Shown here: piece after piece, positions 4,381 to 20,880 of the stretch
How the letters are laid out: every line of letters begins with the position of its first letter
Position numbering within the stretch: position 1 is the first letter of the stretch
Source: a virus
Lineage: Duplodnaviria; Heunggongvirae; Uroviricota; Caudoviricetes
IMG/VR virus record: IMGVR_UViG_2585427776_000012
Direction: 5' to 3' (one strand)
Length of the DNA stretch: 21,926 nt
Translations under genes and position numbers: made by a program
The notes under the pieces: generated by a model
What the model was told of the DNA's origin: nothing
The model's input: the letters and a program-made list of their open reading frames with translations, nothing else
Database searches by the model: none

Positions 4381-4946
4381 TATCGCGTCCTCAACAATGA
4401 ATTTTGTGATGCGGTGCCTGGTGCCTCCAGGTGACGTTAACCAGTTAACAATTAACGCCGGATACAGAGAATCCACCCATAACACTGTTTTTGGTTTTAA
4501 CTGTTCCGCGTGCGCTCAGCCGCATTCACCACATCACAAAATTCACTTTAAAAAGGGCGGCAGAGCAGTCACGGAGTAAAACTGATACCGCCAAACGTCA
4601 CCAGAAAATTGATAACAGAGGGCGTTGCAGCGGGGTTGTCACTTAAGCGTATGGTCAACCTGACAACCCGGTGTCCTCAACGGGGGAAGGAATAACCCCG
4701 CCATACTTACCGCCGCGCCATTTCGCGGATTGCCACAACCGGAAGCGCACGGTCGACGAAAATTTAACGACAGGCTATCTATGAACCAGCTACCTCGCCG
4801 TGCGCTTTCGCGTTATGGTCTGACTTTTCAGGGAAATATCCTTTCAGTAAACTGTCAGTGCCGGATTCTTATCCGTGTCCGGCGCACGACCACACGCTGT
4901 CACGAGAGGTCTCCATTCTCAACCAGTAACCTCAATGGAGGATAAA

Positions 4947-8911: not shown

Positions 8912-9042
8912 CGAGATTAAAGTGCATTAGTTCAGATGCAAATTGACATTTTGTGGCACAGGGTAGAGCTAGCGTGGTTGTCCGCTTTGTGCCAATAGCG
9001 GACATTGCTGGCTCATGGTATGTTAGTTTAAGGAGGCAGGTT

Positions 9043-10065
9043 ATGCCCTGTATTTCGCTGTGGTATAATAGTTGCGCAATTGATACAAGGGAGCGTTACA
9101 TCGTGAAAATTGTTTTCGAGGTTAATGGAAAGAAAGTTCCACTAAAATCTTTAAAATACATAAGCAAAAAAGATCAACTCGAAGTAATGAAAAACTGGTT
9201 CTTTGAAAACTTTGAAGATCCGGCAAATGCTTGTCCGTATGAAAGTAGAGAAGGTGGCTATGCTTACATATATGGCGGGCCGTATGATGCGAGCGAAGAA
9301 CTACAATCCATCTTCGGTCAATATGTTAAATCTGAGTATATTGAGGAATTAGTAGATGAATTACAAACACAATGTTTTGACTGGTCTGGAAACTCAAATA
9401 ATATAGATGATTGGTACGATGATGATATCTACGACGCTGTAACGTCTTCCGGTAATCCGTATTTAAAATTCATTGATAATATCGATAAAATAAAAAAACT
9501 TGCAAAAGATAAAACTGAACAACAGCAAAAAAAACACTTGCTTAGTTTGCTCTACACGAATGTTATTACAGCTTTGGAAACGCTTTATGTTGAGCTATTC
9601 ATTAATTCTATAGAGAAAGATGATGTCTACATAGCCAATTGTATAGAAAAAGGTAAGACTGAATTTAAAGTAAGCAAAGATATTGCTGCGTTGCCTTTCA
9701 AGGGTGAACCCATCGAGAAAATTAGGGGAGAGCTAATCAGGTCAATCAAGGAACACTTGATCAGTGCAAGCTGGCATAGCACTAAAAAGGTAATCGACCG
9801 CTATGAAGCTACATTCGATATAAAAGTACAAAAAGACTGTCCGATAGAAGCTATTGAATTGGCAACCCTCAATCGAAATCACTTAGTGCATCGTGGTGGA
9901 AAGGATAAAGAAGGGAACCTCGTAGTGATTACAGACCAGGATCTTGAAACGCTGATTGAAAATGCATCGAACCTGGCAATTATGCTCTACAACAGTTTAA
10001 ATGTAGCAACGAATAAAACCACCATTTTGCAACCAGATGACAAACCGTTCATTCATGAATTTTAA
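9043..10065 (+). CDS. AT-rich cargo gene A: protein with C-terminal HEPN-like Rx4H motif (putative RNase / abortive-infection effector)
   Basis: ATG at 9043 with AAGGAGG 5 nt upstream; alternative GTG start at 9103 with AAGGGAG upstream and an extended -10 (TGGTATAAT, 9061-9069). Sharp drop to roughly one-third GC (by eye). C-terminal helical region carries LNRNHLVHRGG, matching the HEPN R-[N]-x3-H signature. Confidence 0.6.
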   Translation: MPCISLWYNSCAIDTRERYIVKIVFEVNGKKVPLKSLKYISKKDQLEVMKNWFFENFEDPANACPYESREGGYAYIYGGPYDASEELQSIFGQYVKSEYIEELVDELQTQCFDWSGNSNNIDDWYDDDIYDAVTSSGNPYLKFIDNIDKIKKLAKDKTEQQQKKHLLSLLYTNVITALETLYVELFINSIEKDDVYIANCIEKGKTEFKVSKDIAALPFKGEPIEKIRGELIRSIKEHLISASWHSTKKVIDRYEATFDIKVQKDCPIEAIELATLNRNHLVHRGGKDKEGNLVVITDQDLETLIENASNLAIMLYNSLNVATNKTTILQPDDKPFIHEF

Positions 10066-10080
10066 TAGCGCAGGTCATAC

Positions 10081-11082
10081 ATGGATATTCGCACACGAAA
10101 GACAAAATTTTTAGAGTCGTTAGATTCAACTGAAGTGATACGCAAAGCAGTAAGTCTCGCTATAGATTGCATTATTGATAATCATAATAGTAATGAAGAT
10201 ACCCCCTTAGTTATTACCAGCTATGATGATCTCTGTAGAATCCAGGTGCTAAATTATGTACAGGAGTTTTGCGAAGCTGCATTCCCTGATATGGATGAAT
10301 ATTACTTTAGTCCTAACATACTTCGCATCAACGGCAAGACTAGTGAAGAAGCTTGTATTAACTTAATTAAACTCTTAAGAAGTACAAAAGGCATGCTATT
10401 CTGGTCCGATGCCCCATCGTGGTTCGCTAGCCTCCCCGACGGATTATTCCATGTTGTTAACATTGATCAAAAAATCGTTACTCGCGGCCTTAATAAGAAA
10501 AACTCTAAGCCGACAATAATCAATAAAGATTACAGTGTAGATACACTACTATCAGAGCTATTTTTGAATGGCGCACACATGGAGCAATCCAACGTACACA
10601 ACGTTTCTGAGGGAAACATGAAGTTCTATGATGAATGCCATGCTGGATTAATCAGACCAATACCCGCTCCAATAGGCGCGTCATACGATGAAGAGATCAC
10701 AATTAATTCTCCAGATTGGCAAAAGCTCGCGTGTGTAGCTTTACGCCGCTATCAGTCGAAGGAATGTCATGACGGAATGCAATGGGATACAACCGATCAT
10801 GGTTGGACTGATGTAATCGCGTATCCATTCGTCGAAGAAATACAATCAATGGATAATAGTGGTTATCGACAATGTTTAGTTGGGCTGGTCACAATAAACA
10901 ATTCAAATGCAAATTCTCCGTACCTATCTACCGTTTGGATACATCCATTTTATCGCAGGAGAGGGTTATTAAGTAAGTTATGGCCAAAATTACAAGAGTT
11001 ATATGGAAGTAACTTCGAAATTGAGCGACCTAATGAAAATATGAAAGCATTTCTGAAAAGTGCGAAACACGCAGATTACTAA
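10081..11082 (+). CDS. AT-rich cargo gene B: protein with C-terminal GNAT-fold acetyltransferase-like domain
   Basis: 333-aa ORF 15 bp after gene A, same AT-rich composition. C-terminal IHPFYRRRGLLSKLWPKL fits GNAT motif A (acetyl-CoA binding R/Q-x-x-G-x-G/A). N-terminal ~220 aa unrecognised. Confidence 0.6.
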   Translation: MDIRTRKTKFLESLDSTEVIRKAVSLAIDCIIDNHNSNEDTPLVITSYDDLCRIQVLNYVQEFCEAAFPDMDEYYFSPNILRINGKTSEEACINLIKLLRSTKGMLFWSDAPSWFASLPDGLFHVVNIDQKIVTRGLNKKNSKPTIINKDYSVDTLLSELFLNGAHMEQSNVHNVSEGNMKFYDECHAGLIRPIPAPIGASYDEEITINSPDWQKLACVALRRYQSKECHDGMQWDTTDHGWTDVIAYPFVEEIQSMDNSGYRQCLVGLVTINNSNANSPYLSTVWIHPFYRRRGLLSKLWPKLQELYGSNFEIERPNENMKAFLKSAKHADY

Positions 11083-11398
11083 TTTATGAATCAGTCTGTG
11101 GAGTTAGGGTTGGTGTCAACAAGTAGGGTAAGAGCCTCAACGTGATGCTATGCCGACCTGCTCCCTGAGAATTCACACAGAAGGCTGCTAGCAATGTCTG
11201 CAGATCGCTCAAAGCGGACTAGAAGGTTAGCTTGCGTCGGACTTGGCGTATTTAAAGAAGTGCTGGTGGTGACTGGTTGTTGTGTTCCATTTCTACAGAA
11301 CAAAATCACAGAAACTATACCCAATAGTTATATTGAATCAATGATGAGACAGCCTCATATTTATCAGAACTGGTGTACGTCCAATACAGGAGGTTGTC

Positions 11399-11488
11399 GT
11401 GCTGGTTCTCAAATGTGCGCTAGCTATTGCGGCTGTAATGGCAATTTATTGTCTTGCTGTTGTTCTTATGGATCGCCTTTCTGATTGA
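11399..11488 (+). CDS. Candidate small hydrophobic peptide (29 aa) just upstream of the hok promoter
   Basis: AGGAGG (11388-11393) 5 nt before GTG at 11399. Product VLVLKCALAIAAVMAIYCLAVVLMDRLSD is a single predicted transmembrane helix. Overlaps the 3' end of a Cys-rich 96-aa ORF in another frame, so only one, or neither, may be real. Confidence 0.25.
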   Translation: MLVLKCALAIAAVMAIYCLAVVLMDRLSD

Positions 11489-11569
11489 TTTTATATTGGC
11501 GAGGTGACGGGAGTTAAGTAGAATTGCTGCGGGTGCTTGAGGCTATCTGCCTCAGGCATGAACACCAAA

Positions 11570-11650
11570 GGCAGATAGAGAAAAGCCCCAGTTAATATTA
11601 CGCGTCCTGCAAGACGCTTAACATTAATCTGAGGCTCAATCTATGAACGG
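11570..11650 (-). ncRNA. sok: Predicted Sok-like antisense RNA (position inferred, boundaries approximate)
   Basis: In hok/sok loci the antisense RNA is transcribed opposite to the hok leader across the mok translation start. Placed by analogy; promoter not confidently identified. Confidence 0.3.
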
Positions 11651-11699
11651 CAAATCTAGGTTAGCCTCTTACGTGCCGAAAGGCAAGGAGAAGCAGGCT

Positions 11700-11855
11700 A
11701 TGAAGCAGCAAAAGGCGATGTTAATCGCCCTGATCGTCATCTGTTTAACCGTCATAGTGACGGCACTGGTAACGAGGAAAGACCTCTGCGAGGTACGAAT
11801 CCGAACCGGCCAGACGGAGGTCGCTGTCTTCACAGTTTACGAACCTGAGGAGTAA
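11700..11855 (+). CDS. hok: Hok-family type I toxin (in-frame upstream extension from 11643 = mok-like leader ORF)
   Basis: Product MKQQKAMLIALIVICLTVIVTALVTRKDLCEVRIRTGQTEVAVFTVYEPEE matches the Hok/Gef family as recalled. Upstream leader GGGTGCTTGAGGCTATCTGCCTCAGG resembles the conserved hok mRNA 5' end. Intrinsic terminator downstream. Confidence 0.85.
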   Translation: MKQQKAMLIALIVICLTVIVTALVTRKDLCEVRIRTGQTEVAVFTVYEPEE

Positions 11856-11920
11856 GAGACCCGGCGGGGGAGAAATCCCTCGCCACCTCTGATGTGTCAG
11901 GCATCCTCAACGCACCCGCA

Positions 11921-11946
11921 CTTAACCCGCTTCGGCGGGTTTTGTT
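11921..11946 (+). terminator. Rho-independent terminator of the hok transcript
   Basis: ACCCGCTTCGGCGGGT hairpin followed by TTTTGTTTTTT. Confidence 0.75.
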
Positions 11947-16221: not shown

Positions 16222-16297
16222 GGCCCTTTAGCTCAGTGGTGAGAGCGAGCGACTCATAATCGCCAGGTCGCTGGTTCAAATCCAGCAAGGGCCACCA
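16222..16297 (+). tRNA. tRNA-Ile2 (anticodon CAT, lysidine type; a Met reading is not excluded by sequence alone)
   Basis: Cloverleaf by eye: acceptor GGCCCTT/AAGGGCC, D-arm GCTC...GAGC, anticodon loop CTCATAA, T-loop TTCAAAT, encoded CCA. Closely resembles E. coli ileX as recalled. Confidence 0.8.
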
Positions 16298-16304
16298 TCA
16301 CATA

Positions 16305-16381
16305 CCGCCATTAGCTCATCAGGAAAGAGCGCCAGCCTTCGAAGCTGGTTGCGCGGAGTTCGGGTCCCCGAAGGCGGTCCA
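16305..16381 (+). tRNA. tRNA-Arg (anticodon read as TCG; one mismatch each in acceptor and T stems)
   Basis: Anticodon stem CCAGC/GCTGG with loop CTTCGAA, D-arm GCTC/GAGC, encoded CCA. Anticodon read by eye and should be confirmed with a tRNA scanner. Confidence 0.6.
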
Positions 16382-16394
16382 TTATCTGTATCCT

Positions 16395-16471
16395 GCGTTG
16401 TTAGCTCAGCCGGACAGAGCAATTGCCTTCTAAGCAATCGGTCACTGGTTCGAATCCAGTACAACGCGCCA
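16395..16471 (+). tRNA. tRNA-Arg (anticodon TCT, reads the rare AGA codon)
   Basis: Acceptor GCGTTGT/ACAACGC, anticodon stem ATTGC/GCAAT with loop CTTCTAA, T-loop TTCGAAT, discriminator G, encoded CCA. Confidence 0.8.
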
Positions 16472-16513: not shown

Positions 16514-16732
16514 TGTCTCACAATTCAGGCGGTTGACTGTTGTCTGGTTTGCGGGGAGTTTGTTAAAAGAAACTGGCATGGTGAATCCCCCTGTGCGGAG
16601 GGGCAATCAGCGAGTAGGTATATGGGATAATCGCGGATTCAGGTGCTGGTACTGAATTCACCGGGAGGCACCCGGCACCATGCAATGGCACATAGCGCCA
16701 CTCTCCAGCCCCTCTCCGGAGGGGCTTTTCTG
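16514..16732 (+). repeat. Structured non-coding element, copy 1 (candidate prophage sRNA gene with intrinsic terminator)
   Basis: Shares with copy 2: CTCACAATTCAG, TTGAC box, CATGGTGAAT + CCCCCT..GCGGAGGGG hairpin, TGAA-TCACCGGGAGGCACCCGGCACCATG, and terminator AGCCCCTCTCCGGAGGGGCTTTT (16707-16729). Central segment differs. No credible ORF. Confidence 0.55.
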
Positions 16733-16920
16733 TGCCGGATACATCACAGTTTCTGGAACCTTAGGTACTACAGTATCAGTCAGGGTGCTATATTTTCAGA
16801 TGTGATGAAAGCCTGTCAGCAGGCAGGGCGTATCGGAAATGACCCAGTAGAGAAAACGTTGACTCAGATACCGGTGCTGAGTTACCGGGAAACCGGCATC
16901 ACATGACCGCTATCCTTCCA

Positions 16921-16982: not shown

Positions 16983-17217
16983 TGCTCACAATTCAGTAAG
17001 TTGACAGTTGCCTGTCAGACTGGGCATTTGTTAAAAAAATTTCGCATGGTGAATCCCCCTGAGCGGAGGGGCGACTGGTGACGGTATAATCTCTGATTAT
17101 CAAAACGAGAATGACGCGGGTTTAGTGGCACCGGGCTGAACTCACCGGGAGGCACCCGGCACCATGTGCATGATGATACAGATACGCGGCTTTAGCCCCT
17201 CTCCGGAGGGGCTTTCT
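16983..17217 (+). repeat. Structured non-coding element, copy 2 (paralog of 16514-16732)
   Basis: Same conserved blocks as copy 1, TATAAT at 17085-17090, terminator AGCCCCTCTCCGGAGGGGCTTT at 17193-17214. A further GCCCGCG...CGCGGGC hairpin follows at 17232-17257. Confidence 0.55.
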
Positions 17218-17446
17218 TATGGACAAAAAAAGCCCGCGCTGGGAGACGCGGGCGGCAAGGAATAAACAATAAAACGTGAAGTAATATTTCAGCTGGCGAA
17301 TAATACCCCATAGTAATCACTCTGCGCAACTGCGCGGTCTTTTTCGAATTGCGGGCTGTAGTCTCCCTTCTGCCATTGTCCTGTAACTTCCGGACTTCAG
17401 CCTGCTCCTTATCTGACTCACAACATTATCCCGCCCGGGAGGATTC

Positions 17447-19904: not shown

Positions 19905-20641
19905 TGCAGGATATTCACGAAGAAAGTCTGAACGAGTCGGTTAAGTCAGAGCAGTCACCGCGGGTGGTACTCTGGGAAATCGACCTGACGGTGCAGGGCG
20001 GTGAGCGGTATTTTTTCTGCAATGAGCTGAATGAAAAAGGGGAGCCGGTGACCTGGCAGGGGCGTGAATATCAGGCGTACCCGATTGAGGGGAGTGGCTT
20101 TGAGATGAACGGGAAGGGCAGCAGTGCCAGACCATCGCTGACGGTGTCCAATCTGTTTGGTCTGGTCACCGGGATGGCGGAAGACCTGCAGAGTCTGGTG
20201 GGGGCCACGGTGGTCCGCCGCCGGGTGTATGCCCGTTTTCTGGATGCGGTGAATTTCGTTGCGGGCAATCCGGAGGCGGACCCGGAGCAGGAGCTGAGTG
20301 ACCGCTGGGTGGTGGAGCAGATGTCGCAGCTGACAGCCATGACGGCCTCGTTTGTGCTGGCCACACCGACCGAGACGGACGGGGCGCTGTTTCCCGGTCG
20401 TATCATGCTGGCGAACACCTGTATGTGGACCTACCGCTCTGATGAGTGTGGTTACACGGGCGGGGCTGTGGCGGATGAGTTCGATAAACCCACCACGGAT
20501 ATCCGTAAGGACAGATGCAGCAAGTGCATGCGCGGGTGTGAACTGCGCAGGAATGTCGGCAATTACGTCCGTTACCGGAAAATGTTACCTGGTTATCGCC
20601 GGAAGGGGAGTTTCAGAAGTGGAACGGCACAGCCTGGGTGA
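19904..20641 (+). CDS. Minor tail protein L (C-terminal ~25 aa replaced by out-of-frame tfa-derived sequence)
   Basis: 245 aa; strong similarity to lambda gpL through ...[16 protein letters not shown], after which the sequence diverges (recombination junction about 20565-20578). Confidence 0.8.
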
Positions 20642-20880
20642 AGGATACGGAAGCAGAAAAACTGTTCCGGATCCGGGAGGCGGAAGAAACAAAAAACAAC
20701 CTGATGCAGGTAGCCAGTGAGCATATTGCGCCGCTTCAGGATGCTGCAGATCTGGAAATTGCAACGGAGGAAGAAACCTCATTGCTGGAAGCCTGGAAAA
20801 AGTATCGGGTGTTGCTGAACCGTGTTGATACATCAACTGCACCTGATATTGAGTGGCCTACGAACCCTGTCAGGGAGTAA
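20578..20880 (+). pseudogene. Tail fibre assembly protein (Tfa) 3' fragment fused out of frame to the end of L
   Basis: Frame-1 translation [94 protein letters not shown] is the typical Tfa C-terminal region. No N-terminus or own start; the K, I, J and stf genes are absent. Confidence 0.75.

Follow-up and report, generated by a model that had tools for sequence, protein, structure and literature searches.

The question raised by this locus is whether the stretch between an accessory cargo gene and a hok locus, in which no gene is annotated, encodes anything at all. The stretch occupies positions 11083-11540 of the viral record IMGVR_UViG_2585427776_000012 (21,926 nucleotides (nt) in full, hereafter the window), where it separates the hok locus from the stop codon of a 333-aa cargo gene (10081-11082). 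A first-pass annotation, made from the letters of the DNA, described it as an unassigned 450 bp without a large open reading frame (ORF) and pointed to two overlapping small ORFs, one of 96 aa with a Cys-rich tail (ORF96) and one of 29 aa encoding a hydrophobic peptide (ORF29), adding that only one, or neither, was likely to be real. The coordinates of both ORFs, the AGGAGG motif ahead of ORF29 and the lack of annotation in the interval were confirmed; ORF96 was found where it had been placed and with the tail described, and no ORF of at least 100 aa was present in the interval.

The results indicated that exactly one of the two ORFs is real. ORF29 is very probably a genuine small gene, judging from its sequence and its pattern of substitution, and the comparative data spoke against ORF96. 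The interval as a whole is probably a composite of a cargo 3′ flank, a non-coding spacer, this one small gene and the hok promoter. The description as unassigned held for the bulk of the interval, which has no RefSeq annotation, but not for its two ends: 11496-11540 consists of the hok promoter and the first bases of the hok mRNA, and 11083-11204 (about 120 nt) is part of the variable cargo module, not of the widely conserved block. The 458 bp were 100% identical to a lambdoid (Rac/Qin-like) prophage of strain UTI89 and to many other extraintestinal pathogenic Escherichia coli (ExPEC) strains. In UTI89, the Prokaryotic Genome Annotation Pipeline (PGAP)/RefSeq annotation of the identical sequence has no feature from the cargo gene to hokD.

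Coding evidence for ORF29

The predicted ORF29 peptide comprises a short N-terminus (MLVLK), a predicted transmembrane helix of about 19 residues and an acidic C-terminal tail (DRLSD). Its hydrophobic core spans residues 6-24, with a best 19-residue Kyte-Doolittle value of 2.70; the 97 window ORFs of this size class (25-35 aa) had a mean of 0.37 (standard deviation 0.68), and ORF29 ranked first among them. As such an outlier, the peptide sequence supports the earlier idea of a small membrane protein.

ORF29 was intact in all 155 loci collected, one of which encoded a 31-aa variant through a change in the stop codon. These loci included 134 on viral contigs that had been fetched by a pattern outside the ORF, and every one of the 134 was intact. 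Since divergence among the copies is low, this open-frame test is weak when taken alone. The substitution test covered 30 distinct intact haplotypes with 36 distinct substitutions in codons 2-29, and the expected counts were obtained by placing substitutions at random with the same transition/transversion mix. The variable alleles fell predominantly on the third codon position (20, compared with 9 on the first and 7 on the second), and 19 synonymous and 17 non-synonymous changes were observed where 10.8 and 24.9 would be expected (P = 0.0004). Amino-acid replacements were also conservative (mean BLOSUM62 score 0.29, compared with −0.37 expected; P = 0.017), examples being A/T, A/V, V/I, M/V, D/E and R/H. 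The ratio of non-synonymous to synonymous substitution rates (dN/dS) was 0.13-0.24 where dS exceeded 0.2, and the most diverged copy (strain FAP1, L160) had 12 differences, of which 8 were synonymous and 4 were conservative replacements (dN/dS 0.14). As read from these alignments, the substitution pattern of ORF29 is one of purifying selection on the protein.

Signals for expression were compared among four lineages with diverged upstream sequence (the window, phage HannyBb, L157 and L160), and their mean pairwise identities are given in Table 1. The four lineages aligned without gaps from TATTGAA to 15 nt past the ORF29 stop. The GGAG core of the Shine-Dalgarno (SD) sequence, its spacing and the GTG start were retained in all four, while the sequence of the 5-nt spacer varied and the 5′ untranslated region (UTR) was about 50% diverged. 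The consensus ribosome-binding site (RBS) at good spacing, as claimed at first pass, was present, and such sites are rare in the window: AGGAGG followed by ATG or GTG 4-8 nt further on occurred just three times, which exceeds the 1.1 expected by chance; the other two pairs were the listed start of a DUF977 ORF (8489) and a site near the 5′ end of a cargo gene. The TTGAAT-17-CATATT pattern resembles a classical promoter/RBS footprint, from which we infer promoter function. A LexA box in the UTR was considered and rejected on its spacing, which is CTG-N14-CAG and not CTG-N10-CAG.

Several observations weigh against reading ORF29 as a selected, independently expressed gene. The synonymous excess was weaker on a purely DNA-retrieved sample (P = 0.024) and weaker again on the 57 nt of ORF29 left unconstrained by the first search pattern (P = 0.17), and two highly informative lineages (L157 and L160) were found via protein similarity, which biases the sample towards low dN. 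Between the window and the HannyBb (L002) and L157 lineages, dS was about 0.1 beside a UTR and promoter spacer that were about 50% diverged; dS against L160 was 0.45-0.8. The low values suggest either a mosaic or recombination breakpoint near the ORF29 start, or a constraint on synonymous sites or RNA, as in the near-invariant first 14 nt. Part of the conservation may come from recent recombination of the ORF29-hok flank and not from selection, and divergence is shallow because the range is limited to Escherichia/Shigella. On the side of expression, the ORF29 promoter agrees with 8 of 12 consensus positions, which is under the threshold of the scanner, and was not called. The promoter/terminator scan found no terminator-like site from 11488 to the hok promoter, and the next good terminator lies after hok (11924-11941). 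The papers searched and the supplement of a Sakai ribosome-profiling (Ribo-seq) work contained no mention of, or match to, the ORF29 peptide.

Layout of the interval and its surroundings

Table 1. Features of the interval and its neighbourhood, with mean pairwise identity among the four lineages with diverged upstream sequence
Feature	Position	Strand	Identity	Description
3′ flank of variable cargo cassette	11083-11204	+		Outside the widely conserved block
ORF96	11194-11484	+		96 aa, tail ...CRAGSQMCASYCGCNGNLLSCCCSYGSPF; spurious
Fast-evolving non-coding spacer	11205-~11332	+		Indels, no codon periodicity
Promoter-like footprint	11333-11361	+		−35 TTGAAT (11333-11338), 17-nt spacer, −10 CATATT (11356-11361)
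−35 TTGAA(T/G)	11333-11338		0.92	
17-nt promoter spacer			0.51	Constant length
−10 CATATT	11356-11361		1.00	
First 12 nt of UTR			0.51	
Conserved 5′-UTR motif	11374-11384	+	0.80	GT(G/A)T(A/G)CGTC(C/A)A
UTR segments flanking the motif			0.51 and 0.44	
Shine-Dalgarno AGGAGG	11388-11393	+	0.81	5 nt ahead of GTG
SD-start spacer			0.50	
ORF29	11399-11488	+	0.89	GTG start, 29 aa, predicted single-helix hydrophobic peptide MLVLKCALAIAAVMAIYCLAVVLMDRLSD
hok promoter	11496-11524	+		TTGGCG-17-TAGAAT; promoter scan; 7 nt upstream of the first base of the leader match
hok/sok locus	11531-11855	+		hok mRNA leader 11531-11705, mok 11643-11855, hok coding sequence 11700-11855
DicF	4555-4606	−		Rfam; in the ydfABC-dicF operon

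The left border of the conserved block was sharp. Most of the 1786 matching E. coli records aligned only from about position 123 of the query, which corresponds to about 11205 of the window, and the conservation profile of 88 unique homologues rose steeply at 11204 and peaked over 11355-11500. To the left of this border the cargo differed among related loci, comprising a DUF262/AAA ATPase pair, a TPR protein, QueH or, in the phages Tritos and mEp460, a 1.3-kb minus-strand gene; because the left-hand cargo of related loci is wholly different, 11083-11204 was assigned to the cargo module. The same flank also stood behind the same cargo on a plasmid.

The cargo cassette of the window (8953-11082) consists of two genes of 370 and 333 aa, which fall in PHROGs 17908 and 16994, both of unknown function, and which gave weak sub-threshold matches to a HEPN/RES N-terminal domain and a GNAT acetyltransferase. 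The pair and its 3′ flank also lay beside IS26 on a plasmid (L156), and the cassette is a candidate defence or toxin-like unit. At its edge we observed a non-coding element of about 75 nt (window 11147-11220; …GACCTGCTCCCTG..AATTCACA.AAAGGCTG.TAGCAATGTC.GC..CGCTCAAAGCGGACT), the left part of which lies within the cargo 3′ flank. This element was found bordering accessory cargo three times, in a lambdoid prophage (the window), in a phage P2 hotspot (L155, 2001-2074) and in a chromosomal island beside a type I restriction-modification system (L162, 3501-3569). The P2 hotspot separates the tail-fibre-assembly gene from the tail-sheath gene gpFI, and the identity of the element there was 79.7%. 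It was present in 387 of 5426 E. coli genomes and may be a common junction or regulatory element of mobile cargo cassettes.

The spacer to the right of the border behaved as non-coding sequence. Over 11205-11398 the variable alleles were spread over the codon positions (96/96/93), with no synonymous excess in any frame on either strand, and the spacer was replaced or absent in the L002, L072, L157 and L160 lineages. Two minus-strand ORFs (11084-11212 and 11148-11324) were rejected, as they had no family matches and sit in non-periodic, indel-rich spacer. Small hairpins at 11244-11248/11259-11263 and 11312-11317/11323-11328 had weak covariation support. In a few lineages, pairing in the hairpins within 11244-11263 and 11214-11233 was kept despite changes on both sides (GGCGT/GTGCT to AATAC/GTGTT, and AGCGGAC/GTTAGCT to AGCCAAC/GTTGGCT); being rich in G-U pairs, these two could work on the plus strand only.

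The conserved core of the small gene extends from TATTGAA at the −35 hexamer (about 11330) to about 11503 and was kept even where the upstream sequence had been replaced. ORF29 sits in a module of about 170 bp that is mobile as a unit, usually just upstream of hok and also found without it. The gene order of the early-right operon is cro, ydaT, replication, DUF977, cargo, ORF29, hok, DUF968, rusA and Q, and ORF29 has the orientation of this operon.

A second small hydrophobic ORF, unrelated to ORF29, was observed just upstream of ORF29 in L157 (about 2796-2879). It encodes 27 aa (MTWPEAFTTVGIAIAVALVVYSICRWG), and its ATG shares the sequence ATGA with the stop codon of the preceding gene. L165 has a diverged copy (about 2317-2400), directly upstream of the hok promoter, that ends in ...VVYSICRWG. 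The 27-aa ORF had no significant family match.

The hok leader was recognised by Rfam RF01794 with 113.3 bits, compared with a gathering threshold of 59, starting at 11531, and PGAP annotates hokD here in UTI89. The leader followed directly after ORF29 in 132 of the 145 loci with enough downstream sequence (91%); the remaining 13 had different sequence and then a minus-strand DUF1971/TehB-like gene. The hok promoter was conserved in hok-linked loci and replaced where hok is absent. Conversely, this type of hok was present in 4765 genomes, often without ORF29, including on plasmids. In the Qin prophage of K-12, relBE takes the place of the ORF29 block, and L165 has unrelated genes in place of ORF29. 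The cargo junction of L164 falls inside ORF29, where the QueH cargo leaves the last 22 nt or so (about 2480-2520), and L163, an O111:H11 prophage, has a degenerate ORF29 remnant with indels (about 2440-2500) and a PGAP partial pseudogene just upstream. These results show that ORF29 is a separable, dispensable accessory module that is the usual neighbour of hok and has been lost in some lineages.

Downstream of the interval, an isrK-like Rfam match (11864-11945) reached 27 bits against a gathering score of 50 over the hok 3′ end and the terminator hairpin at 11924-11941, and is probably a mere resemblance to a terminator. Further Rfam matches in the window (16222-16468, 16547-16737, 17015-17224 and 20639-20837) comprised three tRNAs, two STnc100 copies and one IS009 RNA.

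Alternative readings of the conserved core

The alternative that survives best assigns ORF29 to an unrecognised type I or orphan toxin-antitoxin module, as a membrane-depolarising toxin whose translation would be restrained by mRNA structure or by a small RNA (sRNA), either antisense or encoded nearby. We consider this unlikely, and it refines, rather than contradicts, the reading of ORF29 as a small membrane-peptide gene. The size, single predicted transmembrane helix and charged tail of the peptide are like those of TisB, ZorO, ShoB and Fst-type toxins, the GTG start is conserved, and the neighbour of ORF29 in 91% of the loci is a genuine type I system. The earlier phrase "type I toxin-like" thus fits the small hydrophobic peptide, but neither an antisense or adjacent complementary RNA nor homology to a toxin family was found. 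Rfam gave no family in 11083-11530, in or antisense to the ORF29 region; at E ≤ 1 it returned hok/sok and sub-threshold noise, including a minus-strand sok match at 11467-11589 (E = 0.19). No direct repeat of at least 12 nt near ORF29 could provide divergent sRNA complementarity to its mRNA, and the short inverted repeats (I1-I8) were imperfect and unconserved. The sole minus-strand promoter-like site (11517-11488) could serve an antisense RNA in the window, but its −10 TAAAAT is TGAAAT in most homologues, with loss of the second-position A, and other sequence stands there where hok is absent.

Control by mRNA structure fared similarly. A predicted stem between the UTR motif at 11374-11384 and codons 5-8 encloses the SD and start in the window and L160, but the folds of the putative mRNA disagreed among lineages (z-scores −1.5 to +0.75), and the stem was not predicted in HannyBb, L157 or mEp460. 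The strong SD of ORF29 was largely unpaired in the predicted folds. A structured RNA was rejected for three candidate transcripts, whose minimum-free-energy z-scores against shuffled sequences were 0.02, −0.49 and +1.15, and the RNAalifold covariation term was just −0.38. With no Rfam match, folding z-scores near 0 and weak covariation, nothing supported the earlier suggestion that the region holds an RNA regulating its neighbours. The peptide itself had no match at E ≤ 1 in Pfam (including Hok/Gef, PF01848), NCBIfam or PADLOC, toxin models included, and BLASTP against the adjacent Hok gave no alignment at E ≤ 100. The PHROGs search gave nothing significant (best phrog_19319, E = 0.74).

A second alternative is that the conserved core is untranslated, serving as a regulatory or leader segment of hok or as a homology arm for cargo exchange, with ORF29 an incidental frame. 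Consistent with such a role, hok is the neighbour in 132 of 145 loci and no terminator intervenes, synonymous sites are unusually conserved in some lineage pairs (the dS of about 0.1 beside the diverged UTR), the first 14 nt are almost invariant, and different cargos abut the block, as they would a recombination flank. It nevertheless appears very unlikely, because variation peaks at the third codon position of ORF29 with the synonymous excess and conservative replacements described above, and the SD and GTG are kept while the spacer and UTR diverge. Moreover, the module stays intact without hok, and hok loci commonly lack it (K-12, plasmids and L165). Folding was no more stable than in shuffled controls, and no RNA family matched.

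The last alternative, that ORF96 is a real gene for a Cys-rich small protein, is hardly credible: although older annotations listed it as a gene (UTI89_C1473 and about 100 members of a database cluster) and 76 of 94 unique homologues have 65-115 open codons in its frame, its start is unconserved, its frame is broken by stops and indels, it has no family match, and its substitutions run against a coding role. The ATG lies to the left of the conserved block, and the starts of homologues vary among ATG, GTG and TTG, with open lengths in this frame of 23-115 aa across the 94 unique homologues. In 18 of the 94, the ORF96 frame contained a stop codon 25-88 nt ahead of the ORF29 start, and indels of 14 nt and 1 nt were found inside ORF96. 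Stops and frameshifts of this kind, which the first-pass annotation had named as evidence against either ORF, were found in homologues of ORF96 and in none of the 155 ORF29 loci collected. Over the overlap with ORF29, variation was concentrated on the first codon positions of ORF96, and the ORF96 frame showed 6 synonymous and 30 non-synonymous changes (P = 0.99 for a synonymous excess). Upstream of ORF29 (11205-11398), it had 18 stop-involving variants and no synonymous excess. The Cys-rich tail is the +2 reading of T/G-rich ORF29 codons for Leu, Val, Ala, Ile and Cys. On these comparisons, ORF96 is a reading-frame artefact and not a gene.

Distribution, predicted action and comparison with known systems

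The conserved block from about 11205 was found in 1785 of 5426 complete E. coli genomes (about a third), behind many different cargo genes. The carriers included uropathogenic (UPEC), avian pathogenic (APEC) and neonatal meningitis (NMEC) E. coli, among them UTI89, APEC O1, S88 and IHE3034, as well as ATCC 25922 and strain 042, and some carriers had several copies of the ORF29 gene. Among isolated temperate phages in the phage collection, ORF29 was present in four only (Tritos, Evi, mEp460 and HannyBb). A search of GTDB species representatives and of 5.8 billion proteins gave a range of E. coli, E. albertii, E. ruysiae and S. flexneri; outside Escherichia/Shigella, the matches were three short contigs in metagenome-assembled genomes (MAGs) of unrelated taxa, which are probably mis-binned. 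Among the matches listed, ORF29 was without an annotated feature in all of the roughly 100 matching RefSeq records, and the database copies of the peptide, including one RefSeq MULTISPECIES entry, are named just "hypothetical protein" or "membrane protein".

Taken together, the data fit a model in which a weak sigma-70 promoter belonging to ORF29 itself (TTGAAT-17-CATATT) would drive rightward transcription with a 5′ UTR of about 30 nt and, on prophage induction, the early-right operon transcript would carry the gene as well. Because no terminator separates ORF29 from hok, transcription probably continues from the one into the other. The peptide would form a single helix in the inner membrane with its N-terminus inside, as the positive-inside rule predicts from Lys5 and the acidic C-terminal tail, and might then perturb the membrane or modulate a membrane protein, like other small prophage peptides. 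It is quite unlikely that the peptide is the first of a new family of toxins or effectors, active at the membrane, functionally tied to hok and carried by lambdoid prophages of Escherichia. If that were so, with the ORF29 promoter reading into hok, the two small membrane peptides would make up a tandem module that could serve lysis timing, abortive infection or prophage retention through an undetected control RNA or mRNA switch.

ORF29 is an uncharacterised member of a well-known class, the small prophage-encoded membrane peptides, and not a new type of system. It offers a testable candidate for a growing class of prophage membrane peptides that affect host physiology, phage exclusion or lysis, and would be worth including in screens for small proteins or toxins. 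The annotation becomes cleaner as well, with the spurious 96-aa "Cys-rich protein" removed and the hok promoter placed. ORF29 also serves as a landmark: it shows where a hotspot for cargo, probably of defence genes, ends on the right in Rac/Qin-like prophages, which helps to delimit the cassettes.

Among known systems, the type I toxins (Hok/Gef, TisB, ZorO, ShoB, DinQ, Ibs and Ldr) share with ORF29 a very small (about 19-50 aa) hydrophobic peptide with a single helix and a siting in an "empty" intergenic stretch of a mobile element, ORF29 lying directly beside hok/sok. ORF29 differs from them in that no sequence similarity, no cognate sRNA and no conserved translation-blocking fold were found. 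With the hok/sok locus itself, of the hokD/hokW type, the interval shares its right end, yet ORF29 is separable from it, each occurring without the other.

Phage morons are accessory genes that carry a promoter of their own and have inserted between the core genes of a phage. ORF29 resembles them in its promoter-like footprint, in its variable presence among related prophages (absent, truncated or degenerate in L163-L165 and K-12 Qin) and in its position at the edge of a cargo hotspot that lies between the replication region and the nin/Q region. Unlike an autonomous promoter-gene-terminator unit, it has no terminator after it, and it may simply be part of the early-right operon.

Searches based on RBS and conservation, together with ribosome profiling, have uncovered small inner-membrane proteins in E. 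coli, for instance YnfS and YnfT of Qin. We found no homology of ORF29 to YnfS, YnfT, YnfR or YnfP, and the block was absent from K-12 Qin, the sole K-12 region examined. Like ORF29, these proteins are shorter than 50 aa, have one predicted helix and are prophage-borne; they too were missed by standard annotation and are recognisable by a strong SD and conservation.

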